A DNA stretch of 64,000 nt from Chitinophaga pinensis (GCA_945860865.1 CAMARW010000001.1:136154-200153), one strand, 5' to 3'. Positions 1-52,386 are shown, counted from the first letter of the stretch. Numbers and translations: made by a program. The notes: a model not told the origin generated them from the letters alone.

Positions 1-931
1 CATTATCTAATCCGAGCCAAAGATTTTTATTTTTATCAGCGAATAAGCTCAGTACATTGTTGTTTTGGAGTCCGGTTTGAATATTCATTTTAGAGATTAC
101 GGTCCCATTTTCATCTAAAAAGAAAATACCAGATCTGCTCGTTCCGAGCACAATTTTATTGCCATATTTACATGCCCTGTATACCCTATACTTCTTTAAT
201 TCTTCATCATTAAAAGGTGCTTTACTTAGGATATTATTTTTGTAAACATATAAACCATTTTTATGAGTACAAATAAGTAGGGTTTGGCTATTTAAATCAA
301 TGATTGCAGATATGTCTAAGTTACTAGCTGGAATAATTTGTTTAAAAGCGATATTTTCTAGTTCAAAAACAGCACCAGCAGCATCATAAACATATAATTT
401 TTGATTGGCTAATTGCATTTTCTCTAGCGATTGCTCGCTAGGTTTAATCAAATTCATTTTATTATTTTGGAAAGCAAAAATGGTTTTACTGGTCTGAAAG
501 TAGACGATTCCATTTTTCTGCATAATGGTCCAAACATCTTCAAAACCTTTATATTCTTTGGGAAGCAAATGAGCGAGAGAAACGAAGTTTAAGTCGCCAC
601 TTTTAGTATATCCATAATATCCTATTTCATTTTGACCACCAGCATAAATTCTGTGTGAGATAGAATCATATAAAATAGATCGGAGTATGGTTTTACCGGG
701 TAATGGAAAATTTGTAAAAGTTCTTCCATCGAAAACGAGTAGTCCATTATTATTAGCGAAGAAAACTAGTCCTTTATGATCTTCACAAATGTCCCATGTT
801 TGCGTTCCACCTTGGTACATTTGTTTGGTATAGTTTTTAACCAAGGGGGCTGTATTGATGGGTTGTGATGCCAGTTTTAGTATGCCAAGCACGAAACAAT
901 AAAATAGTAAATATATTCCTTTTTTTGGCAT
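1..931 (-). CDS. Sensor/regulator with two-component-regulator beta-propeller repeats; N-terminal part only, 3' end runs off the window
   Basis: Not in the ORF track. My own reverse-strand translation from ATG (929-931) stays open to base 1: MPKKGIYLLFYCFVLGILKLASQPINTAPLVKNYTKQMYQGGTQTWDICEDHKGLVFFANNNGLLVFDGRTFTNFPLPGKTILRSILYDS... It has a signal/anchor followed by the repeated Y..G.Q.W.I.ED..G..FAN..GLL.FDG pattern. That pattern is typical of the periplasmic propeller of Bacteroidota Y_Y_Y/hybrid two-component regulators that sit divergent to glycan loci. Confidence 0.6.
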   Translation of the reverse strand, partial: MPKKGIYLLFYCFVLGILKLASQPINTAPLVKNYTKQMYQGGTQTWDICEDHKGLVFFANNNGLLVFDGRTFTNFPLPGKTILRSILYDSISHRIYAGGQNEIGYYGYTKSGDLNFVSLAHLLPKEYKGFEDVWTIMQKNGIVYFQTSKTIFAFQNNKMNLIKPSEQSLEKMQLANQKLYVYDAAGAVFELENIAFKQIIPASNLDISAIIDLNSQTLLICTHKNGLYVYKNNILSKAPFNDEELKKYRVYRACKYGNKIVLGTSRSGIFFLDENGTVISKMNIQTGLQNNNVLSLFADKNKNLWLGLDN

Positions 932-1129
932 TCAGTGTTAATCAATTAGTGGCAAAAGGTATGAAAAATGATAGTGCTTGTCAAGTAATAAATATTTTAC
1001 AATCAGTAATTTGGCATTTTTTGTAGTAGCAATGTAGTAGAATAATATTTCATTGATGTAAGTGAGTAGGGTTTTAAAAAAATGTTTTTCAAATTTTTAT
1101 ATTGAAGTTAGCAGCATAATTCAATCTCA

Positions 1130-3049
1130 TTGAAAGCTAAGCTACGTATTTATTTTTATGTTGTTCAGGTGATTTTTTGTCTGCTGGATCCATGTATTGT
1201 AGCTGCTCAGGAGCTGGATTCAAGTTTTCAAGACCGACCTATTTCTTCGAATAAGGCAAGTATATTGCCATTAAAAAAACTAACAATTGGTGGGTATTAC
1301 AGGTTTTTTGGAATTAATCGTAGTTTAGAACAAGCGTTTACAGTTATTCCGGGAAATCCTTATGCAAGTGCGCCAGCTTTTGTGCTGGGCACGGGCGATG
1401 TATATCGCGATCCTCCGCTCATGTTGCTTAATGTTTCGGTTCAGCCAACTTCTAAAACATACATTGGTATGGATTACGCTTTATACCACAATTTTTCTGG
1501 TAGGCCAGGTGAAAGTCCTATGAATTTGAATTTAGGAATAAACCTTACAGGAAGTATTCAAACTGATATTGGAAAATTTACTGCGCACATGGGTGGTATT
1601 AATTGGATTGAATTGAGCGGGATGGTCTTCAGTAGTTTTGTGGGTTACCAGCGGTTTAGTATTTATGAACGTTGGCCTTGGGAAGGCAATGAAATTTCAT
1701 TTGACCGGGCATCTAACTATTACAATTATGGTAATATTAGCAGAGACATGCGCTTTGGAATGCAACCATTTAGAGGTTTGATGGTAGATGGCCAAGAATT
1801 ACCGGGTAATATTGAACTTCGATTGTTATATGGAACTACCCCAGCACAAGCCTTTCTTACCAATCAAATTCCTTCTTATACAATGGGAGGTAGAATTAGG
1901 AAAAAGATAGGGAATCATACTATAGGTGCACAGTTTATAGATTATAGGTTGTATCCAGATTCTATAGCAAAAGAGGAAGCTGGTATACAATTGCATACCT
2001 TAAGCTATGATGGCACCATTAAGGATTTTAAAATAACTACAGAATTTGGAAGGGGAAGATTATATTCTGAGGTACAGGAAGCAGGCTGGGGAAATGCCGC
2101 GCGATTAAGCATTCGTACACCAGAGAAATACACTTTTTTTCCGCTAGAGGTAGAGGGCTTTTATGTAAGTCCAGAGTTTATTAACTATTACGGTAATTTT
2201 TTAAGCGGCAATACCAATATTGTAAGCTCTGCTGCCGTAAACCAAAGTGGTTCTACTTTGGGAGGAAGCGGTGGTATAAGCAACTTTGCCGGTTCTATCA
2301 CAGATGTTGGGCAGGTAAGTAGTAATAGAAAAGGATTTAGCATAAATGCTTGGTTTGATTTAACAAAAACAACCAAGTTAAATATAGGTAATATGAGTGC
2401 TACAGAAATACGCAGTTTAGGAAATGAGCTTGCGTTTGGACATAAAATAAACGCCTTGCCCTTTTCTAGGTTTAGTCCGTTTACCAATAATATTGGTGCT
2501 TATGGAAATTGGACTAGCTATTTTAGAGGCTTCTCTCAAAGTATGTTTATAACAGATACCAATGCCCTAGGCTTGGCCAATTCTTTACTGGGTTTTAACA
2601 TGCTTCAACTTCAATTAAAGCAATTTATTAATACGCCATTTTTACCATTTTATCTATTATATGTGGGTTCGTTTGGTTCGGCTCAAGAAGGCTTTAGGTT
2701 TTTACCCGTAACTGGCAATAAAGCTATGTTAAGAACGCATTACCATGAGTTAGATGCTATCTTTAAACTGAGCAAATACATGAGTTTAGTTACTACCTTT
2801 GGTAAAGAATATATTAAAGGTAATAATCAATTAAACCGTGGTGATAATGTGGATGGAATATTGGGCAGTTTGGCTAATGACCCAGTTAACCAAGAAGGAA
2901 CTTTATTTGGATTAGGAATTGATTATAGAATAAGCAATAATACCTATTTATATGCCCGTAAAAGGTGGTTTAATCAGCAAGATAAGAGTTTTGTAAAAGA
3001 CCAGATAAAGGGAACAGAAACCACCATAGAACTTAAAGTATTTTTTTAG
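1130..3049 (+). CDS. Predicted outer-membrane beta-barrel protein, family not recognised; no TonB plug signature
   Basis: 639-aa ORF with a TTG start and a signal peptide ending IVAAQE. The composition is rich in G/N/Y/S/T. The C-terminus IELKVFF resembles an OMP beta-signal with a terminal Phe. It is the first gene of a tightly packed operon, with a 1-nt gap to the next gene. Confidence 0.45.
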   Translation: MKAKLRIYFYVVQVIFCLLDPCIVAAQELDSSFQDRPISSNKASILPLKKLTIGGYYRFFGINRSLEQAFTVIPGNPYASAPAFVLGTGDVYRDPPLMLLNVSVQPTSKTYIGMDYALYHNFSGRPGESPMNLNLGINLTGSIQTDIGKFTAHMGGINWIELSGMVFSSFVGYQRFSIYERWPWEGNEISFDRASNYYNYGNISRDMRFGMQPFRGLMVDGQELPGNIELRLLYGTTPAQAFLTNQIPSYTMGGRIRKKIGNHTIGAQFIDYRLYPDSIAKEEAGIQLHTLSYDGTIKDFKITTEFGRGRLYSEVQEAGWGNAARLSIRTPEKYTFFPLEVEGFYVSPEFINYYGNFLSGNTNIVSSAAVNQSGSTLGGSGGISNFAGSITDVGQVSSNRKGFSINAWFDLTKTTKLNIGNMSATEIRSLGNELAFGHKINALPFSRFSPFTNNIGAYGNWTSYFRGFSQSMFITDTNALGLANSLLGFNMLQLQLKQFINTPFLPFYLLYVGSFGSAQEGFRFLPVTGNKAMLRTHYHELDAIFKLSKYMSLVTTFGKEYIKGNNQLNRGDNVDGILGSLANDPVNQEGTLFGLGIDYRISNNTYLYARKRWFNQQDKSFVKDQIKGTETTIELKVFF

Positions 3050-3050
3050 T

Positions 3051-4772
3051 ATGAAAAAACACATTTCCTATTTTACCTGTATACTTCTTATGCTACCCAT
3101 TGTATTGGTTGCACAAGAAAAGAAAATAGATTTTTTTGGTTCGGGCCGTTTTGCTCTAAACAATGGTAGTATAAACGGAGCCTTATTAAACACCGATTCT
3201 GTAACACCTAGAAAGCAGATGCGAGGCAGTACCCTGTTTGATTTGGGCTTTCATATTAAGCCTAGTGCCGAAACTGAAATTAAGGCTATAACGCGTGTAA
3301 CCAATGATATCAATGGATTTTGGGGGGGAGGCATTGTAATGAATGTGCGTGAATTGTATTTACGTGGCTTGTTGTTAAAGAAATTTAAATACCAAGTTGG
3401 AGATTTAAATACCCGTATGACACCTTTTACTTTGTACAATGCCGAAGGTGAGTTATCGCTTCACAATCCAGAGGCATTAAACACTTTTTCGGAAGTGATT
3501 GCGTATGATAAATTTTATGGAGAAAATTCTTGGCGTCAGCAAGGTGCGCAGATAGATTTTGGGTTTAAGTTTAATGAGGTATTTAATTCCATGAAAATAA
3601 AAGGATTGATTGCCAAAAATCGACAAACCGATTATTTTAGCACGCCAGATCGGCTATTTTCTGCAGCTACAGCAGACTTCACTTTCTTTAAAAATCTAGG
3701 CTTACAGTATAACTTGGCCCATATTTTTGATGTTAGAGAATCTGCTATGTTTTCTGATGCAAGGTTTAGTAATACGGTGCATAGTTTCGGACTTACAGAA
3801 AGTTTTTCTATCAAACAATTTCAATTTAAATTGAGTGGCGAGGCTGGTTTTTCCAAAGTGGCTTATGAAAATATGCTAGCTGCTCCCAATATTCCAAGGG
3901 GCAATTTTGCCACTGCTAGTTTAACTTTTAATCCGTCTAAAGCATGGTATGTAAAGTTACACGCCAATAGAGTAGAAACCCATTTTAGAAGCATGGGTGC
4001 ACAGAGCAGAAGGGTAAACTTTAATGCAGTTGCCAGCGAGTATGCATACTATACGAATAGAGAGAGCGTGCGACCGGCCAATATGTTAGATATCCTTACT
4101 GATGGTAATTATTATAACCTATTTTTAACTCCCAATCTTCAAGGGTTTAATCCTGTTTATGAAAATATTTTGCCTTATGGCCAAGCAACGCCAAATAGGC
4201 AAGGTGCGCAAGCAGAACTTGGATTTAGAACTAAAGCACAATTAGGTTTATTTACAAGCAATATGCGTGTTTCACGCTACAATGAAATAAGCGGACAAGG
4301 CACTATAAATACGAGAAATTTTTCAGAGATTCAATGGGATGCCAATAGTAATATAAACCATTTTTACCATGGCAAACGCAGGCTGAACCTAAGCGTATTT
4401 TATCGACTTCAAAATACCCAACGTGAGGGGATAAAAAATATAGAGGAAATACAACTTAATACAAGTCAGGTAAAGCTAGGTGTAGCTTATGAAGTGGTTC
4501 CAAAATTACATCTACAAATGGGCTTGTTGTTGGTTCAAGCAAAAGGGAATGAATTTATGCCTACTAGAAATGCGTTTAATCAAGTTGTATTTTTTGAAAG
4601 AAGTAATTACAATTTAAATGAAACCTTATTTTTAGGTGGAATAAACTATCAATTTAGCAAACACAATTGCCTTAAAATTCAGTGGCAACAGGTAAATTGG
4701 AATAATGAGTTATTGCCACAAAACCAATACGGAATAAATAGACTTTCGGTACTTTATAATTTATTTTTCTAG
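3051..4772 (+). CDS. Predicted outer-membrane beta-barrel / porin-like protein, family not recognised
   Basis: 573-aa ORF with signal peptide MLPIVLVAQE. The C-terminus SVLYNLFF ends in an aromatic residue, as in an OMP beta-signal. I see no carboxypeptidase-regulatory, plug or TonB-box signature of the kind visible in the true SusC at 48033-51245. Confidence 0.45.
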   Translation: MKKHISYFTCILLMLPIVLVAQEKKIDFFGSGRFALNNGSINGALLNTDSVTPRKQMRGSTLFDLGFHIKPSAETEIKAITRVTNDINGFWGGGIVMNVRELYLRGLLLKKFKYQVGDLNTRMTPFTLYNAEGELSLHNPEALNTFSEVIAYDKFYGENSWRQQGAQIDFGFKFNEVFNSMKIKGLIAKNRQTDYFSTPDRLFSAATADFTFFKNLGLQYNLAHIFDVRESAMFSDARFSNTVHSFGLTESFSIKQFQFKLSGEAGFSKVAYENMLAAPNIPRGNFATASLTFNPSKAWYVKLHANRVETHFRSMGAQSRRVNFNAVASEYAYYTNRESVRPANMLDILTDGNYYNLFLTPNLQGFNPVYENILPYGQATPNRQGAQAELGFRTKAQLGLFTSNMRVSRYNEISGQGTINTRNFSEIQWDANSNINHFYHGKRRLNLSVFYRLQNTQREGIKNIEEIQLNTSQVKLGVAYEVVPKLHLQMGLLLVQAKGNEFMPTRNAFNQVVFFERSNYNLNETLFLGGINYQFSKHNCLKIQWQQVNWNNELLPQNQYGINRLSVLYNLFF

Positions 4773-4776
4773 AACT

Positions 4777-5811
4777 ATGAAAAAGCTTTTAATAATTTTT
4801 ATTGGGGTTTATTTAATTCTCTTCATGGGTTGTAAAAAAGATACAGCAATTGAAGGCCCAGAATTAATTGATTTATTTGGCGAATTTGCCTTGCTTGAAC
4901 CTATTCGTGCGTCAGTAAAAACGGTGAATTTTGCAAACCAAGAACAGGTGCTATTTAAGGGTAAATTAAGTATCCGTACTCAGTGGACTGTTGATATAAT
5001 TGGCTTAAATAGTGGGGCAATAAAAACTTTTACCGGCAACGAAAAAGACTTTAATACATTTCCTATTACTTGGAATGGTACCATTACCTATGCTCCTTTT
5101 TTTAGAAAAAATGAACCCTGTGTTGCTCGTTTGCGTTTTGAGAATTATCCTGATACCATTTATTCTGATACGATAACTATCACAGATATTCGTCCAACGC
5201 CAAGTGTAGATATTTTAATAGACGATTTTGAAAGTCCGCAAAGGCCTTACAATACTTTTACTGAAGGTCAGCAAACCTTTAATGGAACATCGGTAAATTA
5301 CCAAGGCGTATCGCCAACAGAAAAAACGAGATTCTATGTACTCGCCGGAAATCGTGGTCCAACGGCCAGTTTATTTTTATGCGGTATGAACCTAAGTGCG
5401 CGAGTAAGTCAAGGTTTAGGGTCTAATTATTTTTCATTTGCCACTGAAAATCCGAATAATATTTTTTTCAATGCTTATATATATGGTTGGGGCGATAACA
5501 AGCCAGAGTTGAGTATTGAGTTTCAGGAAGACGACAATAAAGATGGTGTTTATCAGCCTGCAGAAGAAGGGGCTTATAATTTTCGTTTACCCATAAATTG
5601 GAAGGGTTGGAAATTAGTTAGTTTCTCCTACGGCGATACCCGCATATCTACTTCCGGAGGATTTGGTAATGTAGATAGAACAGGCAAGAAAGATCCTGAT
5701 AGAATAATTGCAGCTCAGTTTTTACTTTTATCTCAGCCAGGCACCAGTGGCATAACTCGTGTGGGAATTGATTACGCTAATTTCACTTATTATAAACCAT
5801 TTCAACCCTAA
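4777..5811 (+). CDS. Lipoprotein with a CBM-like C-terminal beta-sandwich; candidate surface glycan-binding protein
   Basis: 344 aa with a lipobox (LILFMGC). The C-terminal half begins IDDFESP and contains NWKGWKLVSFSY, then ends GIDYANFTY. This is the DDFE...GW.xV pattern common in CBM4/11-like modules. Confidence 0.5.
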   Translation: MKKLLIIFIGVYLILFMGCKKDTAIEGPELIDLFGEFALLEPIRASVKTVNFANQEQVLFKGKLSIRTQWTVDIIGLNSGAIKTFTGNEKDFNTFPITWNGTITYAPFFRKNEPCVARLRFENYPDTIYSDTITITDIRPTPSVDILIDDFESPQRPYNTFTEGQQTFNGTSVNYQGVSPTEKTRFYVLAGNRGPTASLFLCGMNLSARVSQGLGSNYFSFATENPNNIFFNAYIYGWGDNKPELSIEFQEDDNKDGVYQPAEEGAYNFRLPINWKGWKLVSFSYGDTRISTSGGFGNVDRTGKKDPDRIIAAQFLLLSQPGTSGITRVGIDYANFTYYKPFQP

Positions 5812-6998
5812 TGAAAAGCCTCATTTATTTTTGTTGTGGTTTATTTATGCTAGCTGCATGTGGTGTGCAGATGCAAACACAAAACTTAGTGGATGAGTGG
5901 GGAAATACTTATGACCAAGAACAACAACAAGTTTTTACAGATAAGGAAGTATTTAGCAACCAAACGGCAGATGTTTGGGGCTTAGAAAAAACAGATTGTA
6001 AGCATTTTAGTAGGATAGATACGCTTGCTTACAAAGGCAAATCGAGCATTAAATTGCAATGGAATAAAACAGGTTCTTGTGCTTGGTTAGGTTTTGGAAT
6101 TGGTTGGAACGGTTATGCCGCCAAGGATTTAACTCCGGTTATGCAAAATGGCAAGATTACGTTTTTTATTAGAGCAATTAAAGGCACTCAATTTGTGCCT
6201 ACTTTAATTTTTTTGTTAGAAGATTACAGCGGCATACAAACAGCTACCCTATTTAAAGCTAAATACCTAGAACGATATCCGATAGATGAAGCATGGCAGA
6301 AGGTTAGCATACCTTTATCGGGTTTTTTAGAGGCAGCTGGGCCTAAAAGTGATTTTAGCAATATCAAAAGTTTAAATGTGGAATGCCAAGGTGAAGGCGC
6401 TATTTTAATAGATGAAATATACATTGAAGAAGGCAGTAAATTAAATGGCGGGGTAAGTAAAAAGTTTGGTCAAACCATTACCCAAACTTTCCCAGCACTA
6501 ATATTTGAAGATGATATGCAATATGCTTGGGGTTTAGGGAATTATTTGGGCAGAAATATACAAATAGACTCGCAAGTTTATCTCATGGGAAGTAAAGCTT
6601 TACACATGCAATGGAATATTACAACTTTACCAAATGTAAACAACCAATTAGGTTTTAATTGGGAACGTTGGCAGGCTATTGCCTTATATGATTCTGTGGT
6701 AGCTTATAGCTTAAGTATGTATATTTATGCACCCAACAAATTAAACCTAAATATGCTACAAATAGGCTTTGAATCATATGCTGGAGAGCAGGTAAATATT
6801 GGGCTGAACCAAACCTATGTGAGTAATACGGAATTTACAGATAAGCAAGGAAATAAATGGCTAAAAGTACGCATACCTTTAGCTGCATTTGATTGGGAAA
6901 AGACGCAATTTAATGTCCAAAAGTTTAAACAATTATTGATAACATTTACGCAAGAAGGAGAGTTATGGATAGATCATATACAATTAGAAAAAAACTAG
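5811..6998 (+). CDS. Lipoprotein with two CBM-like modules; candidate surface glycan-binding protein
   Basis: 395 aa with a lipobox (MLAACG). It has two internally similar halves: KGKSSIKLQWN...WQKVSIPLSGF...ILIDEIYIE and GSKALHMQWN...WLKVRIPLAAF...LWIDHIQLE. Its start overlaps the upstream stop by 1 nt (TAATG). Confidence 0.5.
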   Translation: MKSLIYFCCGLFMLAACGVQMQTQNLVDEWGNTYDQEQQQVFTDKEVFSNQTADVWGLEKTDCKHFSRIDTLAYKGKSSIKLQWNKTGSCAWLGFGIGWNGYAAKDLTPVMQNGKITFFIRAIKGTQFVPTLIFLLEDYSGIQTATLFKAKYLERYPIDEAWQKVSIPLSGFLEAAGPKSDFSNIKSLNVECQGEGAILIDEIYIEEGSKLNGGVSKKFGQTITQTFPALIFEDDMQYAWGLGNYLGRNIQIDSQVYLMGSKALHMQWNITTLPNVNNQLGFNWERWQAIALYDSVVAYSLSMYIYAPNKLNLNMLQIGFESYAGEQVNIGLNQTYVSNTEFTDKQGNKWLKVRIPLAAFDWEKTQFNVQKFKQLLITFTQEGELWIDHIQLEKN

Positions 6999-9250
6999 GT
7001 TCGAACCAAATTATTTGGGGCATATTTACTTTATTGTTGGCTATACTATCGTGCAAGCCGGTCAAAGAAAAATTGCCAGAAGAGCGCGCCCAAGCTATTT
7101 TAAATGAGATGAGTTTGGAAGAAAAAGCTGGGCAAATGACTCAGCTTAGTATTGAGATGATTTTGCAGGGCAAAGACCAATTTAATTTAACTAAGCCGCA
7201 TGCCTTAGATACTGTTAGGCTAAAAAAAGTATTGGTAGAAATGGGTGTAGGTTCTATATTAAATGTACCAGGCAATACTTTTACATTAGCCCAGTGGAAA
7301 GAAGTGAGCGATGCTTTGCATGCCTATCGGATGCAAACGAGACTTCAAATACCCGTATTGTATGGCATAGACGCGATACATGGCGCTAACTATACTGCAG
7401 GTGCAACCTTGTACCCGCAGCAAATCAATTTAGCAGCTAGTTTTAATTCAGATTTGATAGCAGAAATGGCTACCTACACTGCCAATGATGTGCGCGCAAG
7501 TGGTCTTGCTTGGAACTTTTCTCCAGTGTTAGATGTTGCTAGAAACCCAAGGTGGCCTAGGTTTTGGGAAACATTTGGTGAAGACCCAATAGTGGCTGCA
7601 TGTTTAGGATCGAGCATGGTTAAAGCCTATCAAATGCCTTCAAAAAATGGACTGCCCGGAGTAGCAGCTTGTTTAAAACACTATGTTGGTTATGGAGATG
7701 CCCGCAGTGGAATGGATAGAACTCCTGCCTATATACCAGAAAGGCAATTGCGCGAAATTTTTTTACCGCCCTTTGCTAAAGCCATTGAGGCTGGCGCCCA
7801 AACTATTATGATAAACTCTGGTGAAGTAAATGGCGAGCCTGTTCATGCCAGTAAGTTTTTATTACAAACTATTTTGCGCGAAGAATTAAAGTTTAAAGGG
7901 ATAACGGTAACAGATTGGGAAGACATTAAAAATTTGTATGAGCGACATAAAATAGTATCAACCTATAAAGAAGCGGTTGCCGTGGCAATTAATGCTGGAA
8001 TTGATATGGCTATGGTTCCTTTAGATACTTTATTTACGCATTACCTAATTGAAAATGTAAAGGAAGGAAACATTTCAATGACGCGCATAAATCAATCTGT
8101 TTTGCGGATATTAACCCTTAAATTTAAACTAGGTTTATTTGAAAACTCACCTGCAAATAGCAGTAAATATGACTCAATTGGTTCAGACCAAAGTAAAAAA
8201 TTATCCTTGACATTAGCTACACAAAGTTTAGTTTTATTAAAGAATTCTAATCAAGCTTTACCATTATCTCCAACTGAAAAGATTTTAGTTACGGGTGCCA
8301 ATGCACATTATATAAATGCGTTAAATGGCGGTTGGACACATACCTGGCAAGGTAGAGATACCACTTATAATTCTGAGGTTCCAACTTGTTTGGAGGCATT
8401 GCAAAAAATTCATGGGATGGATAAAGTGGTTTATTTACCTGGTAATACTTACGATACCAATTTGTCTGATGAAACATTGCTTGCAGCGGCAAAAAATGTA
8501 GCTTCAGTGGTATTATTTTTAGGCGAAGATACCTACACAGAAAAACCAGGAGATATATTGGATTTAGAACTATCTGCAACTCAACAACACCTCATTAAAG
8601 TATATAAAAAAGCAGGGAAAAAGGTGATTGTAGTTTTATTGGAAGGAAGGCCTAGAACCTTTGCTAACTTGGAGCCTTTGTGTGATGCTATTATTTTTGC
8701 AGGTTTACCTGGAGATGCCGGCGGAACTGCCCTAGCTAATGTATTGTGTGGCCTATCTAATCCCTCAGGGAAATTGCCCTTTACCTATCCAAGATATTCG
8801 GGTTTTCATTTAACTTACGATTGTAAATATACGGAGGTGTTGAACAAAGATTTTAAGCCATTGGGCTTTAATCCATTGTTTGAGTTTGGTTCAGGCCTGA
8901 GTTATACAGATTATGTTTATAGTAATTTTACTTGTGATAAAGAAAGTTATACGCTTACAGACACTATCAAAATGAATGTTACCATAAGCAATACAGGCGC
9001 CATGGAGGGTTTGCACACCGCATTATTTTATAGTAAAGATGAGGTGGCAAGTATTACACCATCGGTAAAAAAGTTGCGTGCATTTCGAAAGATTTTCTTG
9101 AAACCAGGTGCAAGTGAAATTGTTTCAATAGAATTACCTGTGCAACATTTAGCATTTGTTGGACTATCAAATAAATGGGGCGTTGAGCCCGGCTCATTTA
9201 AACTTTCAGTAGATACCTTAATTCAAAACATAACTATTACCAACAAATGA
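6965..9250 (+). CDS. bglX: Glycoside hydrolase family 3 beta-glucosidase, lipoprotein-type N-terminus
   Basis: 761 aa carrying GH3 hallmarks: GIDAIHG, KHYVGYG, GITVTDWED, and a C-terminal fibronectin-like domain. The N-terminus LLLAILSC is lipobox-like. Confidence 0.88.
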   Translation: MDRSYTIRKKLGSNQIIWGIFTLLLAILSCKPVKEKLPEERAQAILNEMSLEEKAGQMTQLSIEMILQGKDQFNLTKPHALDTVRLKKVLVEMGVGSILNVPGNTFTLAQWKEVSDALHAYRMQTRLQIPVLYGIDAIHGANYTAGATLYPQQINLAASFNSDLIAEMATYTANDVRASGLAWNFSPVLDVARNPRWPRFWETFGEDPIVAACLGSSMVKAYQMPSKNGLPGVAACLKHYVGYGDARSGMDRTPAYIPERQLREIFLPPFAKAIEAGAQTIMINSGEVNGEPVHASKFLLQTILREELKFKGITVTDWEDIKNLYERHKIVSTYKEAVAVAINAGIDMAMVPLDTLFTHYLIENVKEGNISMTRINQSVLRILTLKFKLGLFENSPANSSKYDSIGSDQSKKLSLTLATQSLVLLKNSNQALPLSPTEKILVTGANAHYINALNGGWTHTWQGRDTTYNSEVPTCLEALQKIHGMDKVVYLPGNTYDTNLSDETLLAAAKNVASVVLFLGEDTYTEKPGDILDLELSATQQHLIKVYKKAGKKVIVVLLEGRPRTFANLEPLCDAIIFAGLPGDAGGTALANVLCGLSNPSGKLPFTYPRYSGFHLTYDCKYTEVLNKDFKPLGFNPLFEFGSGLSYTDYVYSNFTCDKESYTLTDTIKMNVTISNTGAMEGLHTALFYSKDEVASITPSVKKLRAFRKIFLKPGASEIVSIELPVQHLAFVGLSNKWGVEPGSFKLSVDTLIQNITITNK

Positions 9251-11061
9251 AATACCTAAAAGCATATATATTTTTAATAGTTGGTTTGAACCCAATTTTT
9301 AGCCAAGCACAAGAGTTTTTGCGTTGGAGTGATGAGTTTAATGGGAATAACTTAGATACCAATTTTTGGAGTTACCAGATAGGGAATGGATGTCCTAACT
9401 TATGCGGTTGGGGTAATAATGAACTACAATTTTACAAGCAAGAAAATGTGAAGGTTCAGAATGGTATTTTGAATATTTCTGCTGAAAAAGAAACGGTGGG
9501 TTCAAATACTTATACCTCTGCTCGCATCAGAACATTAAATAAAGTTGATTTTGCCTCTGGTAGAATTGAAGTACGTGCGCGTATACCTGTTGGACGAGGA
9601 TATTGGCCAGCGGTGTGGTTTTTGCCATCTGAAAATCATTATGGTATTTGGCCATTGAGTGGAGAAATAGATTTAATGGAAGCGAAGGGTCAAGAACCGC
9701 AAACAACGCATGGCACCATTCATTATGGCGCCTACGTACCCAACAATAGATATACCGGTAATACCTATTCTTTGAGCAATGGAAGTTTTGCAAGCGATTT
9801 TCATGTTTACACTTTAAAGTGGAACGAAAACGCCATAGAATGGTATGTGGATGATATTTTATATTGTACTAAAACACGCATAAATACCAATCCTTTTTGG
9901 TGGCCGTTTGATAGAAATTTTCATGTAATTATGAACTTGGCTGTGGGCGGTAATTTTTTAGGTAATCCAGATACTTCTACGCCTGATACGGCGAGTTTAC
10001 AGGTAGATTATATAAGAGTTTATCAAGATCTTTCTCAAATTTTTATTAGTGGTCCAGATGCTATTTTACGAAAAGATGTAAACCAGAGTTTTTACACCCA
10101 AAAATTGCCGGGCGCCACTTATTTATGGGAGGTTCCAGCAGGGGCAAAAATTAGAAGCGGCGCTATTTTGGATCAGGCTAAAATAGATTGGGGATTAAAA
10201 AGCGATTCTATTTTTGTTACCATAACCCATAATGGAAAATCAAAGAAGATAGCAAAATGGGTTCGGGCCCTTCCAGATACTTGTGAGGGATTAATAGATA
10301 ATTTGGAGAATCTTAGGAGTGTTTATTGGGTGGGTGGCACAGGAACCTTTGCTGGGAGTATTACCAATCCAGCCAAAGATTCTGTGAATAATAGCAATAG
10401 TGTAAATAGGTATTATAGAAATTCAGGTGTGCCATACGATGCATTGTTGCTCAAGGCTGATGCTATTAAATCAGCAACAGCATTTGAACTGGGAAACATG
10501 GTTCTAAAAATGAAGGTTTATACAACGGCTCCTGTGGGTACAGAATTAAATATAAACTTTGAAAATAGGGCTCGCGCTGGTTCAGATTACCCCATGGGTA
10601 GACGTTGTGTTTTGCAAGCGAAAACTACCAGAAGTAGGGCTTGGGAAGAGCTTACATTTAAATTAATTCTTAAGCCTGATCCAAATACTTTAGATGGTAG
10701 CATAGACCAATTAGTGATGTTGTTGGCGCCAAATACCAATACGAATGATGTGTATTTCTTTGATGATTTTTACCTAGAGGAAAAACCCTGTAAGGATCTG
10801 CAGATAGGCACAAATGAGCTAGAAGGTGGCAATTTCGGAATTAAGGTTTATCCTAATCCGATTACGGATGAATTGCATCTAGATTTGCCTTTTGAGCCCA
10901 ATGCTTTTGAGCTGTTTGATATGCACGGAAAATCCATTATTTCTGTAAGTAATTTAATAGATTTAAATAAGCAATTGCCGGGTATTTCAAGCGGTATATA
11001 TTGGTTGCAAGTAGGAAATGAAACTAAACAAGGGCGAGTTAAATTAGTTAAAACACAATAG
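9247..11061 (+). CDS. GH16 laminarinase-type endo-beta-1,3-glucanase with a CBM-like module and a T9SS C-terminal sorting domain
   Basis: 604 aa. The GH16 catalytic motif E-x-D-x-x-E is present as GEIDLMEAKG, with WSDEFNG upstream. The C-terminus reads KVYPNPITDELHLDL...GIYWLQV...VKLVK, a T9SS CTD pattern. There is an ATGA overlap with the GH3 stop. Confidence 0.85.
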   Translation: MKYLKAYIFLIVGLNPIFSQAQEFLRWSDEFNGNNLDTNFWSYQIGNGCPNLCGWGNNELQFYKQENVKVQNGILNISAEKETVGSNTYTSARIRTLNKVDFASGRIEVRARIPVGRGYWPAVWFLPSENHYGIWPLSGEIDLMEAKGQEPQTTHGTIHYGAYVPNNRYTGNTYSLSNGSFASDFHVYTLKWNENAIEWYVDDILYCTKTRINTNPFWWPFDRNFHVIMNLAVGGNFLGNPDTSTPDTASLQVDYIRVYQDLSQIFISGPDAILRKDVNQSFYTQKLPGATYLWEVPAGAKIRSGAILDQAKIDWGLKSDSIFVTITHNGKSKKIAKWVRALPDTCEGLIDNLENLRSVYWVGGTGTFAGSITNPAKDSVNNSNSVNRYYRNSGVPYDALLLKADAIKSATAFELGNMVLKMKVYTTAPVGTELNINFENRARAGSDYPMGRRCVLQAKTTRSRAWEELTFKLILKPDPNTLDGSIDQLVMLLAPNTNTNDVYFFDDFYLEEKPCKDLQIGTNELEGGNFGIKVYPNPITDELHLDLPFEPNAFELFDMHGKSIISVSNLIDLNKQLPGISSGIYWLQVGNETKQGRVKLVKTQ

Positions 11062-11065
11062 ATTT

Positions 11066-12331
11066 ATGAAGCATGTGCTAGTAATTTGTTTTCTCTTTTT
11101 TTTATTTACAGGCGGGGTGTTTGCACAACCAGTAGCTGTTGCCATTAAAACAGATGAAGCAGGTAATTTTACAATGTTCAGAAATAATACACCTTATTAT
11201 GTAAAGGGTGTAGGCGGACATGTTTATATGGATATTGCACAAGCTTCTGGTGCTAATTCTGTTAGGTTGTGGGGAGCAGAGAATGCAAAGGAGGTTTTAG
11301 ATGAAGCGCATCAGCGTGGGTTAACGGTTATGCTTGGCTTATGGATGCCACCCGAAAGGCATGGTTTTGATTACAGTGATAAATGGGCTTGTTTGGATCA
11401 GTTAAATCAATTTAGAAGCATCGTGAAGCGTTACAAAGACCATCCAGCTTTATTGTTATGGGGTGTAGGTAATGAGGTAGATTTATTTTATACTGATTTT
11501 GCTGTTTGGGACGCAGTACAAAACATAGCAGCTATGATTCATGCAGAAGATAAAAATCACCCTACTTGTGTGGTAACAGCTGGTATTGATGCGCCAGAAG
11601 TTTCACTAATTAAAGAGAAGTGTAAGGATATAGATATCTTAGGTGTAAATACATATGGTGATTTGCCAGCTTTGGCACAAAAAATTCGTTTGTATGGTTG
11701 GAATAAACCCTACATGGTAACAGAATGGGGTCCGAATGGCCATTGGGAGGTGGCTAAAACGAGTTGGTTAGCGCCAATAGAACAAACATCTACAGAGAAG
11801 GCAATTACCTACCAAACACGATACCGGGAACATATATTAGCAGATAGTGCCAATTGCTTGGGGTCTTATGTGTTTTTATGGGGACAGAAACAAGAAACAA
11901 CCCCTACTTGGTATGGTGTTTTTATTGATAATAAATATGGTGAATGTGTGCAGGTATTGCAACAAGAATGGAGCAATAAAACCCCTGAAATGGCAGCACC
12001 CAAAATTAAGCAATATCTTTTAAATGGCATGGCAGCAGCGGCTAGTGTAAAGTTGGCCAAGCGATCCATAGTTTCAGTTTTGCTTGATTTAGAACATTCT
12101 ACAAAAGAAAGTTTGCAATACAAATGGGAGCTTATGCCAGAAAGTGAGTATACGCTTTCGGGTGGAGATGCAGAACGCAAGCCCGATGCCTTGCCTATAA
12201 ACGTTAACAAAAGCGGTAATTTTTTCACCTTTAAAGCTCCCTCCCAAAGCGGCTCTTATCGCTTGTTTGTTTATGTAATGGATAACAAAAACCAAATTGC
12301 TTATGGAAATTTTCCATTTTATGTGAAATAG
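11066..12331 (+). CDS. Clan GH-A TIM-barrel glycosidase with a C-terminal Ig-like domain, GH158-like (putative endo-beta-1,3-glucanase)
   Basis: 421 aa with a signal peptide. The acid/base motif is GVGNEVD (Glu at residue 137 of this ORF). The nucleophile motif is MVTEWGP (Glu at residue 220). The C-terminal ~90 aa form a beta-sandwich-like tail. The gene co-occurs with GH16 and GH3. Confidence 0.55.
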   Translation: MKHVLVICFLFFLFTGGVFAQPVAVAIKTDEAGNFTMFRNNTPYYVKGVGGHVYMDIAQASGANSVRLWGAENAKEVLDEAHQRGLTVMLGLWMPPERHGFDYSDKWACLDQLNQFRSIVKRYKDHPALLLWGVGNEVDLFYTDFAVWDAVQNIAAMIHAEDKNHPTCVVTAGIDAPEVSLIKEKCKDIDILGVNTYGDLPALAQKIRLYGWNKPYMVTEWGPNGHWEVAKTSWLAPIEQTSTEKAITYQTRYREHILADSANCLGSYVFLWGQKQETTPTWYGVFIDNKYGECVQVLQQEWSNKTPEMAAPKIKQYLLNGMAAAASVKLAKRSIVSVLLDLEHSTKESLQYKWELMPESEYTLSGGDAERKPDALPINVNKSGNFFTFKAPSQSGSYRLFVYVMDNKNQIAYGNFPFYVK

Positions 12332-12508
12332 TATTTTACTAATTTGAAGCGTATAAAAATTGATCCGCTGTTAAATTTATAATTCACAATAATTTTAATT
12401 ACAAAATTACAGTGCTAGCAAACGCTGCTTTTGTTTAATTTTGTTGAAGTTTTTTGCCTTTTCTTTAAACTAAATATTGGCTGTATTTACTTTAAATGCT
12501 AATCGCCT

Positions 12509-12535
12509 TATTATTTGCAGTTTATGCAAATAATA
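12509..12535. promoter_or_regulatory. Perfect 11-bp inverted repeat TATTATTTGCA-N5-TGCAAATAATA; candidate operator or weak terminator
   Basis: Read directly from the sequence: arms at 12509-12519 and 12525-12535, with spacer GTTTA. It lies in the 443-bp AT-rich gap between the glucan operon and the rhodopsin gene. Confidence 0.3.
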
Positions 12536-12698
12536 CCTTTTTAGTTTGGAAAAATTGATTTTTTTCATTAAAATAATAAATTTTTTTAAATTTTCGTAAT
12601 ACCTTATTTATGAGCTAATTATTTTTATAAATTTCTTTTTTTTGGACTTTTTTAACCGATTTATTTACAGAAAAGGGAATAATATTAAAAATAAAATT

Positions 12699-12729
12699 TT
12701 TGATTTTAAAACTTAAACAACTAAGCTTG
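12699..12729 (+). promoter_or_regulatory. Putative Bacteroidota sigma-A promoter for the rhodopsin gene
   Basis: TTTG (12699-12702), then 19 nt, then TAAGCTTG (12722-12729). This is one mismatch from the Bacteroides-type -33 TTTG / -7 TAnnTTTG consensus. It sits about 45 nt upstream of the ATG at 12775. Confidence 0.3.
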
Positions 12730-12774
12730 TGTTGATTCTTTTTTTAAATTTATTAAACTAAACAACTTAAACAC

Positions 12775-13509
12775 ATGATGAATTTTTTACTAAACATTGT
12801 GGCAATTCCGGTAGATGATCCAATTGCTTTCACCTTCTTTACTGGCTACATGGCTATGCTTGCAGCTTCAGTATTTTTCTTCTTTGAGCGTTCAAGCGTT
12901 TCTAAAAAGTGGAAATTATCTTTGTTAATTTCTGGTTTAATCACAGGTATCGCAGCAGTACATTACTACTACATGCGTGATTATTATTTGGCTACTGGCC
13001 AAAATCCTACCGCATTGCGTTACATCGACTGGACATTAACTGTTCCTTTGATGTGTGTTGAGTTTTATTTATTAACTAAAGCTGCTGGAGCTAAAATTTC
13101 ATTGTTATGGAAATTATTAGCTGCTTCTGTTTGGATGTTAGTTGCTGGATACATCGGAGAAGCATTTACAGATGGTTCTTCTAGTCATTCAGTAATCTGG
13201 GGCTTCTTATCAACAATCGGTTATGTATATATTTTATACACTGCTTGGTTTGGTGAAGTTGCTCAGTTAGCTGAGAAAAGTGGTAACGAAACAGTTGTTA
13301 AAGGTGTTCGTATTTTAGCTTGGTTTGTATTAGTAGGTTGGGCTATCTACCCTATTGGTTACATGTGTATGCCAGGTGGTTGGTTAAACACAGGTTTAGG
13401 TTGGAGCAGTTCTAACGTAGATTTGTTTTACAACATTGCTGATGCTATCAACAAAATTGGATTCGGTTTAGTAGTTTACAGCGTAGCTGTTGCTAACTCA
13501 AACGACTAA
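12775..13509 (+). CDS. Proteorhodopsin-type light-driven proton pump (microbial rhodopsin, DTE motif)
   Basis: 244 aa with 7 hydrophobic segments. RYIDWTLTVPLMCVE aligns to proteorhodopsin RYIDWLLTVPLLICE. That alignment gives D85/T89/E96 (the DTE motif), Met93 at the L/Q105 tuning position, and His63 (H75 equivalent). NIADAINKIGFGL supplies D223 and the Schiff-base Lys227. Confidence 0.93.
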   Translation: MMNFLLNIVAIPVDDPIAFTFFTGYMAMLAASVFFFFERSSVSKKWKLSLLISGLITGIAAVHYYYMRDYYLATGQNPTALRYIDWTLTVPLMCVEFYLLTKAAGAKISLLWKLLAASVWMLVAGYIGEAFTDGSSSHSVIWGFLSTIGYVYILYTAWFGEVAQLAEKSGNETVVKGVRILAWFVLVGWAIYPIGYMCMPGGWLNTGLGWSSSNVDLFYNIADAINKIGFGLVVYSVAVANSND

Positions 13510-13526
13510 TTAAATTAAAATATTTC

Positions 13527-13559
13527 AAAAAAGGCTGCACTTAGGTGCGGCCTTTTTTG
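13527..13559 (+). terminator. Rho-independent terminator after the rhodopsin gene
   Basis: Hairpin GGCTGCAC-TTAG-GTGCGGCC (one G-U pair) followed by TTTTTTG. Confidence 0.6.
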
Positions 13560-13652
13560 TTTTAGCTTAACATCTTCTTTACAAACAAGTATTGTTTTGG
13601 TAACGTGTAATTTACCATTTGTTAGCATTGTACTCAGAAATTCACAGATGAA

Positions 13653-16600
13653 TTGAAATACAACAATGTTAACAATTTTTACAAACAAAATATGATTAGT
13701 TTATTAAAGAAGAAAGCGCTCTTGCTTGCACTAGCAGCGGGCCTGTCGGGTTTTCTGCAAGCCCAAATTAACATGCAGTTTTCGGGGAGATTTTCTACTG
13801 GGTTTTATGATAAAGCAGCAGCAGAAATTACTGCCTACGATGCAGTAACCAAACGCCTATTTATTACCAATGGCCCAGATTCGAGCTTTAAAATAGTGAA
13901 TGCTAGCAACCCTGCTAACCCTGTTTTAATTAGCTCTATCAGCATCAAGCCTTACGGTATTGACCTTACTTCTGTAGCAGTTAAAAATGGCGTAGTAGCC
14001 ATTACTGTGATAGATTCTTTGGGCAAAACTGAAAATGGTAAAGTGGTATTTTTTGGCGTAAATGGTAACTACTTAAACCAAGTAGATGTGGGCCCAAATC
14101 CAGATATGCTGATCTTTACTCCAGATGGAAAGAAAATACTGGTTGCCAACGAAGGTGAACCTAATGATGGTTATACCATAGACCCAGAAGGTTCTGTTTC
14201 TATAATAGATGTTTCGGGTGGCATTGCCGGTTTGAACCAATCAAATGTGCAACGCGCAGGCTTCACCCAATTTAATACCGGACCTATAGATTATAAAATT
14301 AAGATTACGGGTAGAATACAATCGGGTGGAAACTTTTTACGTAATTCTACAGTTGCTGAAGATTTAGAGCCAGAATATATAGCTGTTTCTGATGATGGAA
14401 ATACCGCTTGGGTTACTTGTCAAGAAAACAATTGTTTGGCCGAGTTAAACATTGTTACCGGAACTTTTACCCGTTTAATTCCACTTGGATTTAAGAACCA
14501 CAATTTGCCTGGAAATGGCTTAGATGCTTCCGATCAAGGTGGTGTTGTAAATATTGCTAACCGTCCGGTTTTTGGTATGTACCAGCCAGATGCCATTGCC
14601 AGTTATAAGGCAGGTAATACTACCTTTTTAGTAACTGCTAACGAAGGTGATGCCCGCGCAGATTGGGGTGCAGCCAATGTAGAGGATGTTAGATTTGGAG
14701 CCGTAACTTACACAGTAGATACCAATAAATTTGGCGGTGCCGCTGCGGTTGCAGCATTAAAAGCAAACACGGCAATGGGCAGGTTAAATGTTTCTAATAA
14801 ATACGGTGATTTTAACAACGACGGTTTATTTGATAGTATTTTTTGTTTTGGTGCAAGGTCTTTCTCTATATGGAATGGAACAACAGGCCAATTAGTTTGG
14901 GATAGCAAAGACCAATTTGAGCAATTAACCAAAACTTTATTCCCAACAAACTTTAATGCAAGCAGCACCAGCAATACTTTAAAAAATAGAAGTGATGATA
15001 AAGGTCCGGAACCAGAAGCCATTACAATTGGTAAAATCTTGGATTCAACTTATGCCTTTATTGGTCTAGAAAGAATTGGTGGTATTATGATTTATAATAT
15101 TACTAACCCAGCTAATCCTTATTTTGTTCAATACGTAAATACGCGTGTTTTCACGCAAACACCAGGTTTAAACTTGGGTGGCGATTTGGCTCCAGAGGGA
15201 ATTATTTTTGTACCTGCTAATCAAAGTGCAAACGGTAAACCTATGTTGGTTGTATCTTTTGAAACCAGCGGAACAGTAGTAATGTTCGAGATAAATAGCC
15301 GTAGCGATTTTCAATTACAAGTATTGCATTCATCTGATATGGAGAGCAGCGTTAGCGCTACTGTTGATGCACCAAACTTTGCTGCTATTGTAGATAAGTT
15401 AGAAGATGAATATCCTAATTCAATTTTACTATCATCTGGTGATAACGTTTTACCTGGTCCATTCCTTTCATCTGGTGAAGATCCTTCGTTACAAACGCCT
15501 TTAAGAACCACTGCCGCTTCTTACTATGCAGGCAATGGCAACCAATTGCGCCCTGCCATTGGTAGAACAGATATTGCTATTATGAACGTTATGGGTTACA
15601 ACGCCTCTGCTATGGGTAACCACGAATTTGACTTAGGAACCACTGAGTTAAACGGACAAATTGGTGTAGATATCAGAAGTAACGGTGCCGATAAAAGATG
15701 GATTGGTGCACAATTTCCTTTTGTTAGCTGTAACCTAAATTATTCGCAAGACGTTAACTTAAGCTATCTATTTACTAACCAAATTTTAAGAGATACTGCT
15801 TTTAAAACAGCAGCTAATATTACTGCTAACAGCCAAAAAAAGGGTATTGCTCCATCGGTTGTTATTGAACGTAACGGACAAAAAATTGGTGTGGTAGGTA
15901 TCACTACTCAAATTTTAGCGCAAATTAGTTCGCCGGGTGCTACTACTATGGTAGGACCATCAAGCAATGATATGCCTGCTTTGGCTCAAATTATGCAGCC
16001 ATTCATCGATTCATTGAGAGTAAAAGAAGGTATCAATAAAATTATTGTATTGTCGCACTTACAGCAAATTAATTTAGAAATTAGCTTGGCTCCACTTTTA
16101 AAAGGAGTAGACATTATTATTGCCGGGGGTAACCATGAGTTATTAGCAGATGGTACAGATAGATTAAGAGGCGGACAAGCTGTTTATGGCACTTATCCAA
16201 TGATGCTAAATAACTTTGATAATGAGCCATTGTTATTAATTAACTCCACTTCTGAGTGGAAATATGTAAACCGTTTGGTTGTTGATTTTGATGTTACTGG
16301 AAAAATTATTGTAAGTGCATTAGATTCTACTATCAATGGTGTTTACGCTGCAGATTCGGCTATGGTAACTCAGTTATACGGTTCGTATGCAGCAGGTTTT
16401 ACTGCGGGTTCTAAAGGACAACAAGTAAGGTTATTATGCGCAGCAGTAGCTAATGTTATCAATTTAAAAGATGGCAATGTATTGGGTAAATCAAAAGTGT
16501 TTTTAGAAGGTCGTCGTAATTTGGTTCGAACCGAAGAAACCAATTTAGGTAACGTATCCTCAGATGCTAATTTGTGGTATGCACAACAATATGATCCTGA

Positions 16601-48014: not shown

Positions 48015-48032
48015 AATATTTTCTTTTAAAAA

Positions 48033-52080: not shown

Positions 52081-52386
52081 ACTTTAATTTTTTCGGATAA
52101 ATAATCAAATTTTATCCCTTAAATATAATAAAGGTAAAAATATAATTAATAAATTGCTATTTCTACAAATTTAAATTGTTATTTACAAATTAAGTTTGTT
52201 ATAAAACTGTTATTTTATTGGTCAAAAAACAGATAAAAAATAAAGCCTAAGATTTTGGGGTATGATGCCCAAATTTAGATAATAAATGCAAAAGGTAAAC
52301 AGCGTTCTTTATGATACTTACCTTGTTTGAACCCGGGCATTTATTTTTTTGTTTTAAATCAATTCATTAATAGATTTGAACTCGGA

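Follow-up and report, generated by a model that had tools for sequence, protein, structure and literature searches.

How do β-1,3-gluco-oligosaccharides cross the outer membrane of a member of the Bacteroidota when the operon that encodes the glucan-degrading enzymes has no SusC/SusD pair? The question is raised by positions 1130-12331 of a 64,000-nt stretch of Chitinophaga pinensis DNA (GCA_945860865.1 CAMARW010000001.1:136154-200153; hereafter the window, with coordinates counted from its first letter), where listing and translation of open reading frames (ORFs) gave seven co-directional genes on the + strand: four, here called A to D, upstream of three glycoside hydrolase (GH) genes. We propose that A to D, encoding two predicted outer-membrane β-barrels and two lipoproteins, constitute a SusCD-independent and probably TonB-independent import module for β-1,3-gluco-oligosaccharides, a proposal to which we assign a probability of about 0.55 and which is the best reading of gene position, conservation and predicted fold. 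From A to the last hydrolase gene, successive ORFs meet at +1, +4, -1, -34, -4 and +4 nt, and thus appear to form one tightly packed operon. A preliminary description of this DNA had counted eight genes with gaps of -34 to +5 nt. The tight packing and the 34-nt overlap were confirmed, the largest gap is +4 rather than +5 nt, and an eighth gene is reached only by adding a rhodopsin gene (12775-13509) that lies outside 1130-12331. Except for the number of genes, the β-1,3-glucan gene set was confirmed as described.

The three hydrolases were assigned by searches against Pfam, NCBIfam and PDB and by inspection of the translations. The first (6965-9250, +; 761 aa, lipoprotein-type signal peptide) is a predicted GH3 exo-β-glucosidase with matches to Glyco_hydro_3 (7e-74) and GH3_C (6e-39), an additional Fn3-like domain and, as best NCBIfam match, an exo-β-1,3/1,6-glucosidase model matched under its equivalog cut-off. 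The second (9247-11061, +; 604 aa) matched PF00722 (2e-21), carries an EIDLME motif of the E-x-D-x-x-E catalytic type and found only laminarinases among its best PDB matches (3azx, 7e-59; 2vy0, 1e-58); judged by Pfam, motif and PDB matches, it qualifies as a putative endo-β-1,3-glucanase of the GH16 subfamily 3 laminarinase type. Its PKD-like middle region is followed by a C-terminal sorting domain (CTD) of the type IX secretion system (T9SS; Por_Secre_tail, PF18962, 3.6e-7; TIGR04183, 1.2e-8), which marks a type A cargo, and the window also encodes a 2248-aa homologue of the T9SS translocon protein SprA (56934-63680, -; SprA_N, 1e-183), so that the organism has the secretion system required by this enzyme. 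The third hydrolase (11066-12331, +; 421 aa, type I signal peptide) matched 9oro, labelled 'GH158(Pro)', at 8.4e-94 over residues 16-420 and 6pal (BuGH158) at 3.8e-69; 9oro is a processive GH158 (PMC13195107). With catalytic NE and TEW motifs present as GNEVD and TEWGP, it is by these matches a true GH158, a predicted β-1,3-glucanase composed of (β/α)8 and C-terminal Ig-like domains. The enzymes had been read beforehand as a GH16 with EIDLME, a GH3 and a clan GH-A barrel with NE/TEW glutamates and an Ig-like tail, and every one of these calls was correct. As judged from the encoded proteins, the locus is best explained as a complete β-1,3-glucan (laminarin/chrysolaminarin) utilisation operon.

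The resemblance to Bacteroides laminarin polysaccharide utilisation loci (PULs), also pointed out before, holds for both the enzyme set and the gene order. The Bacteroides uniformis 1,3GUL is arranged as HTCS-SusC-SusD-SGBP-B-GH16_3-GH158-GH3 (HTCS, hybrid two-component system; SGBP, surface glycan-binding protein; Dejean et al. 2020, PMC7157763), and the two loci share GH16, GH158, GH3 and a propeller-type periplasmic sensor, in the order regulator, outer-membrane module, glycan-binding lipoproteins and hydrolases. They differ in the outer-membrane module, which in the 1,3GUL consists of a SusC TonB-dependent transporter (TBDT), SusD and SGBP-B and here of two plug-less barrels and two unrelated lipoproteins. 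They also differ in the regulator, an HTCS there and probably of the BguR type here (LuxR helix-turn-helix, no kinase), and in the GH16, lipidated there and T9SS-secreted here. In the broad sense, at least as PMC13543919 outlines it with reference to Grondin 2017 and Terrapon 2018, a PUL is a set of co-localised, co-oriented carbohydrate-active enzymes (CAZymes) for one glycan together with a regulator and proteins for transport or binding, and the seven overlapping or abutting genes with their divergent regulator, kept across species, correspond to it. The canonical PUL of the PULDB definition is recognised by an adjacent susC-like and susD-like pair; Pfam and NCBIfam searches detected none in window positions 1-13600, nor was one found in the flanks of 80 related loci (L001-L080, see below). 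As the preliminary description had it, the operon contains no SusC/SusD, and the SusC/SusD/SGBP positions are taken by two barrels and two lipoproteins. The sole SusC/SusD pair of the window (46620-51245, -; SusC at 48033-51245, a SusD-like_2 type protein at 46620-48014) lies 34 kb from the operon and has no CAZyme neighbours; it is flanked by an AraC-type regulator (45323-46474) and a 452-aa protein with no Pfam match.

Proteins A (1130-3049, +; 639 aa) and B (3051-4772, +; 573 aa) belong to uncharacterised families. Each carries a type I signal peptide and an aromatic C-terminus (KVFF in A, NLFF in B), of which the terminal Phe is invariant in the two families, in agreement with their initial reading as signal-peptide proteins of about 600 aa with an outer-membrane-type C-terminal Phe. 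Neither protein matched Pfam or NCBIfam, the TBDT barrel models PF00593 and TIGR04056 included, even at E<=0.1, and 85 members of the A and B families searched against Pfam at E<=1 yielded no TonB_dep_Rec, no Plug and no named porin family; weak generic OMP_b-brl matches in 5 of 45 B relatives were all that appeared. No PDB chain was matched by either sequence, used singly or as a family profile, and hhalign against the window SusC gave a probability of about 1%, with the limited sensitivity of a single template sequence. The same Pfam approach detected CarbopepD_reg, Plug and TonB_dep_Rec in that SusC, which served as control, and no TonB box was found in A or B. Neither barrel thus scored as a TonB-dependent receptor or SusC, and the earlier observation that both lack the carboxypeptidase-regulatory/plug signature of the SusC at 48033-51245 was extended to 85 relatives and to the structural models described next. 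A and B show no relation to each other by BLASTP, whereas profile-profile alignment with hhalign joined them end to end over 504 columns (E 1e-5), which identifies them as old, distant paralogues. A hidden Markov model search of 1.84 billion representative sequences retrieved 748 clusters (50% identity) of B relatives at E<=1e-3 and 279 at E<=1e-30. The family is thus genuine, of modest size and, as far as sampled, tied to this one kind of locus.

AlphaFold2 models computed from family alignments predicted large β-barrels with no plug for A and B alike. The A model (pLDDT 76, pTM 0.75) has strands from residue 51 onward, preceded by about 28 disordered residues. In the B model (pLDDT 88.9, pTM 0.83), from residue 26 on and immediately behind the signal peptide, 22 strands fill the whole mature protein and leave no room for a plug; on the models, neither A nor B has space for such a domain. 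Loops after even-numbered B strands measure 2-10 residues, as for periplasmic turns, and those after odd-numbered strands mostly 5-12, the exceptions being two long conserved loops, one with a helix at 122-160 (topologically L3) and one at 309-382 (L7). Loops are conserved as much as strands. Foldseek searches against PDB returned generic outer-membrane barrels for both models (chitoporins, OccK/OprD, AlgE, MOMP, MtrB, LptD, ZnuD and ushers), with TM-scores of at most 0.40. OprD-type chitoporins were the top matches of B (TM 0.36-0.37), and ZnuD, a TBDT, gave the highest query-normalised TM-score for both proteins (0.40). B is predicted to have as many strands as a TBDT, and its superposition on TBDTs (TM <= 0.40, root-mean-square deviation (rmsd) about 16 Å) was no better than on porins. 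As these were generic barrel matches only, no fold family was assigned.

Protein C (4777-5811, +; 344 aa) is a lipoprotein with no match in Pfam or PDB and no homologue detected outside the cassette. Its lipobox Cys, present in 76 of 77 orthologues, is followed in most of them by (R/K)(K/R)(D/E), which we take to resemble the surface-exposure signal of Bacteroidota lipoproteins, and C is probably exposed on the cell surface. None of the 22 detected homologues of C bears a name other than 'hypothetical'; only one comes from a named source, Bacteroidetes bacterium B1(2017), and it is the C protein of the L004 cassette. Protein D (5811-6998, +; 395 aa), also a lipoprotein, matched the carbohydrate-binding module (CBM) family CBM30 (1e-13, residues 40-191) and is an internal tandem duplication of a CBM30-like β-sandwich module, with halves that are homologous to each other (E 8e-7); distant loci have a single-module D of about 210 aa, in some cases with an added CBM9. 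The lipobox Cys of D is conserved in 41 of 44 orthologues, with no acidic residues after it in 35 of the 41, and from these signals we infer a topology with C outside and D on the periplasmic side of the membrane.

We surveyed the distribution of the cassette by scanning one genome for each GTDB species with a degenerate pattern; this detected 349 loci with a B relative, the best 80 of which were kept. The kept loci all come from metagenome-assembled genomes (MAGs), for the most part of lake or river origin with some from the sea, and nearly all bear a Bacteroidota label (Bacteroidia, Flavobacteriales, Crocinitomicaceae, Chitinophagales); five records titled Bifidobacterium, Comamonadaceae or Luminiphilus (L010, L013, L020, L022 and L054) are probably mis-binned or mis-named. 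Flanks were examined over +/-10 kb per locus, and 37 loci with at least 8 kb on either side were treated as full-flank loci. The arrangement A-B-C-D was contiguous wherever it could be tested, with A immediately preceding B in 70/70 loci, C immediately following B in 73/73 and D following C in 68/68, and with exactly one A and one B at each locus. The genes keep gaps or overlaps of 1-4 nt at 30-76% identity, an arrangement far beyond chance. GH158 was the only enzyme present in all 37 full-flank loci, GH3 being found in 32 and GH16 in 22 of them, and two gene orders dominate, A-B-C-D-GH3-GH16-GH158 and GH158-A-B-C-D-GH3. No full-flank locus (0/37) contained a relative of the window SusC. Searches with phmmer using the window SusC and SusD against all flank ORFs returned no SusD and a single TBDT fragment, 7 kb from the cassette in L004; a second TBDT fragment lies 6.7 kb from the cassette in L087, and both are unpaired and at the edge of their locus. 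A Pfam census of 92 flanking ORFs revealed T9SS proteins with CBM48-like repeats, NUDIX/AraR proteins, MFS and SSF transporters and Y_Y_Y/GerE or HTCS regulators, and the 25 families listed included neither a TonB receptor or plug nor SusD. Marine and most-divergent members have the same context, for example SSF-A-B-C-D-GH3-GH16-GH158-HTCS, with SSF or MFS transporters and HTCS, BguR or NUDIX/AraR regulators nearby.

Other genes recur around the cassette. T9SS proteins with CBM48/AMPK1_CBM/X25-like repeats flank many copies (L085:4073-6871, L001:2146-4920); Por_Secre_tail was found in 14 of the 92 flank ORFs and CBM48-like repeats in about 10, and by analogy with the proteins described in bioRxiv 10.1101/2023.09.07.556657 these multi-CBM proteins may capture laminarin. 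In loci of the GH158-A-B-C-D-GH3 order, a conserved protein of about 275-290 aa with no Pfam or PDB match is encoded 3′ of GH3 (L040:15531-16409, L053:16191-17063, L074:15568-16443, L087:15590-16417 and others). One of five orthologues gave a sub-threshold GH16 match (E 0.009), and the protein may thus be a very divergent GH16-like stand-in for the canonical GH16.

The operon is divergent to a propeller-type sensor gene, as had been described, across an intergenic region of 198 nt. This gene (2-931, -) continues past the window start, and its first 310 aa, corresponding to the N-terminal sensor part, matched Reg_prop (8.4e-8). The complete orthologue in L085, a near-identical contig whose A protein is 98% identical, has 952 aa with Reg_prop and a C-terminal GerE/LuxR helix-turn-helix and no kinase domains. 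This architecture matches that of BguR, the beta-glucan utilisation regulator, which has about 850-1050 aa, a periplasmic propeller sensor and a C-terminal GerE helix-turn-helix with no HisKA/HATPase (bioRxiv 10.64898/2026.01.10.698779), and by analogy with the L085 orthologue the window gene probably encodes a BguR-type one-component regulator. About 60-110 nt upstream of A, an operator-like element at 1022-1071 (+) consists of the direct repeat TGTAGTAG-N3-TGTAGTAG, a spacer and TTGATGTAAGTGAGTAGGG; its downstream box is GTAGGTGAGTTGGG-like. It is conserved in 12 loci, with most positions invariant and the rest of their intergenic DNA diverged, and is likely to be the operator/promoter region and a candidate binding site of the BguR-type regulator. 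A scan with a sigma-70 model, which is not meaningful for Bacteroidota promoters, found nothing better than in shuffled sequence.

In these loci every other step of glucan use is provided for: the endo-glucanase is secreted, the exo-enzymes are periplasmic or lipidated, and there are a symporter of the inner membrane and a sensor in the periplasm. The cassette, inherited as one block with GH158 and GH3, occupies the place of SusC/SusD/SGBP-B; A and B would therefore most economically supply the passage through the outer membrane, with C and D as accessory lipoproteins that bind glycan or serve in gating. Since the barrels have no plug and no detectable TonB box, this passage would be a TonB-independent facilitated diffusion powered by hydrolysis in the periplasm. 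The strict 1:1 pairing of A and B, their translational coupling and a conservation of loops as high as that of strands suggest a fixed hetero-complex rather than two independent porins. Computation establishes gene content, protein families, predicted barrel folds, the lack of plug and TonB-receptor signatures and conserved synteny; we infer import function, heteromeric pairing, TonB independence and regulation, and envisage the following sequence of events. The T9SS-secreted GH16 would cleave the glucan outside the cell, and C, with its surface-export-like signal, would aid capture of the fragments, as the neighbouring T9SS multi-CBM proteins probably do in many loci. Oligosaccharides would then cross the outer membrane through the paralogous, plug-less barrels A and B of about 22 strands, probably acting as a fixed pair, by passive substrate-selective diffusion through pores whose narrowing is probably due to L3 and L7, the long conserved loops of the extracellular side, instead of a TonB-operated plug. 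On the periplasmic side, D, with its CBM30-like modules and no surface-export signal, might receive or hold the sugars, and GH158 and GH3 would hydrolyse them to glucose and so uphold the gradient. The BguR-type regulator would sense periplasmic oligosaccharide and turn the operon on through the conserved upstream repeats.

Several points weigh against import through A and B. A 22-strand barrel that stood open would be a hazard and must therefore be gated in some way; that L3 and L7 occlude the pore is a guess. Confidence in the A model is moderate only, and a D lacking the surface-export signal is odd for a glycan-binding protein in a porin-plus-SGBP scheme. Every carrier found is a MAG, both L004 and L087 have a TonB-receptor fragment at about 7 kb from the cassette, and a distal SusCD or another TonB-dependent transporter beyond +/-10 kb could perform the import. 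The import proposal also has a fuller form, which we put forward tentatively as a possible but doubtful extension: A to D would be a self-contained machine that evolved apart from SusCD, in which the heteromeric barrels of about 22 strands are each served by a lipoprotein, C as external lid or binder and D as internal plug or receiver, giving a TonB-free 'selfish' route for laminarin. If so, abundant streamlined freshwater and marine Bacteroidota would have a low-cost route to the most abundant algal storage glucan.

The stoichiometry of two barrels and two lipoproteins and the tight coupling of their genes suggest barrel-lipoprotein complexes, and this is also what would be expected if A to D were an accessory assembly that anchors, flips or displays C and D or the secreted enzymes, much as LptD houses LptE, as a platform for glycan capture, with import left to a distal SusCD or other TBDT. 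Such an arrangement would accommodate a D that has CBM-like modules yet no surface-export signal; non-canonical PULs with a distal SusCD are documented (PMC13543919), and this genome does encode a SusCD pair. That pair, however, is the only one in the 64-kb window and has no CAZyme neighbours, and in the examined loci no SusC/SusD pair lies near the cassette, though inner-membrane transporters and regulators do. The loci would then have no step for passage through the outer membrane, and we consider a purely accessory role unlikely.

A and B could instead be extremely diverged TBDT barrels that lost the plug, far relatives of the 'Type S' proteins exemplified by BVU_1662, and would then belong to a class already described, not to a new family. 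The 22 predicted strands of B equal the TBDT number, ZnuD is the best match by query-normalised TM-score, and Type S barrels, too, go undetected by PF00593 and PF07715 and occur in CAZyme clusters without SusD. Yet no TBDT signal was obtained from Pfam with 85 members, from PDB profile searches or from hhalign against SusC, and a TM-score of 0.40 with an rmsd of about 16 Å is no better than that of porins, AlgE or MtrB. Type S barrels, moreover, have about 770 aa and stand singly with no lipoprotein partner, whereas A and B have 573-639 aa and are paired and followed by two lipoproteins; on this evidence a TBDT ancestry is improbable. A role in secretion or export, with A and B as accessory outer-membrane proteins of the T9SS like PorP/SprF or PorV, or as a porin for polysaccharide export, could be suspected from the T9SS tails of the GH16 and of many neighbouring proteins and from the presence of AlgE among the Foldseek matches. 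We rejected it as very improbable, since no NCBIfam or Pfam match to the PorP/SprF, PorV, Wzi or AlgE families was obtained, the cassette is kept in loci where no GH16 bears a CTD, and the context is purely catabolic.

If A to D do form an import module, as we favour, it can be set against several known systems. With SusC/SusD (RagA/RagB) it shares its place in the locus, the encoding of a large barrel (a predicted 22 strands for B) next to lipoproteins, and tight gene coupling; it differs in lacking the plug, the carboxypeptidase-regulatory domain, a detected TonB box, the SusD fold family and any sequence relation, and in a barrel size of about 600 as opposed to about 1000 aa. The Type S barrels occur singly, are lidless and often plug-less, have about 770 aa, escape Pfam and import short fructans in gut Bacteroides (BVU_1662; bioRxiv 2025.11.13.688124 / PMC12642598). 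They are recognisably TBDT-like by Gene3D 2.40.170.20 or PANTHER PTHR32552/PTHR10565, and such non-canonical barrels accompany many CAZyme clusters (PMC12642598). Both are non-SusCD barrels of Bacteroidota CAZyme clusters that Pfam misses and for which import of short oligosaccharides is proposed or demonstrated. By description, Type S barrels are single and handle fructans in gut bacteria, whereas here the barrels (639 and 573 aa) are paired, invariably precede two lipoproteins and are associated with β-1,3-glucan in aquatic lineages. The proposed principle of a TonB-independent, substrate-selective channel encoded with catabolic genes is that of the proteobacterial LamB/ScrY, ChiP, CymA and KdgM; those sugar-specific porins have 12-18 strands and no dedicated lipoproteins, whereas B has 22 predicted strands, no porin family was matched in Pfam, there is no sequence relation and the similarity is that of generic barrels (TM 0.36-0.37). 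A more speculative parallel is offered by LptD/LptE and MtrB/MtrA, very large barrels with no plug of their own that are encoded with a partner able to occupy or gate the lumen; those have 26 strands, serve lipopolysaccharide export and electron transfer, and show no sequence relation to A or B.

The module had been supposed to be undescribed, and this was only partly upheld. SusCD-less CAZyme clusters (PMC13543919) and lidless, plug-less barrels (PMC12642598) are known, whereas no description of a paired-barrel, two-lipoprotein cassette or of its protein families was found in the open-access papers and preprints searched. Literature on SusC-independent uptake, freshwater laminarin loci, Crocinitomicaceae CAZyme clusters and the context of GH158 likewise yielded no description of A to D. 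In a review of September 2026, SusC/D remains the hallmark of Bacteroidota PULs; SusCD-less CAZyme clusters are mentioned there as catalogued, and no alternative outer-membrane transporter is named (PMC13543919). What appears new here is the building of a non-SusCD outer-membrane module from undescribed families, the general idea of a glycan-utilisation locus with such a module being partly anticipated. SusC/SusD pairs provide both the operational definition of Bacteroidota glycan loci and the marker by which these are counted in genomes, metagenomes and metaproteomes (PMC13543919). Were the import proposal true, surveys based on that marker would overlook some of the laminarin/chrysolaminarin that planktonic Bacteroidota turn over (the cassette being present in at least 349 species-level genomes), glycan uptake across the Bacteroidota outer membrane would have at least one further architecture, and the unannotated families A, B and C would gain a testable function. 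The cassette also offers a natural case for testing if uptake of a simple, abundant glucan requires energisation by TonB.

Downstream of the operon, a 443-nt AT-rich gap precedes a microbial rhodopsin gene (12775-13509, +; Bac_rhodopsin, 2.4e-42), which has the same place in the near-identical contig L085 and is consistent with a sunlit planktonic lifestyle. A pattern scan placed a terminator-like hairpin followed by a T-rich run at 12410-12427 (+) in this gap. Terminator-like sites in the scan were not more numerous than in shuffled sequence, so the hairpin fits, as weak evidence, an end of the operon there and is no proof of one. An Rfam search yielded a tRNA and nothing else. Beyond the rhodopsin gene, 13653-18935 (+) encodes a 1760-aa T9SS cargo with choice-of-anchor I, a 5′-nucleotidase C-terminal domain, DUF5689 and a SusE-like domain, which may act at the surface as a nuclease or phosphatase in phosphorus scavenging. 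A HipA-like toxin kinase (35846-37093, -; HipA_C, 3e-52) adjoins a 449-aa thioredoxin-like protein, and three sizeable ORFs, at 26324-28474 (-; 716 aa), 38438-40189 (-; 583 aa) and 52327-53685 (+; 452 aa), gave no Pfam match at E<=0.001.

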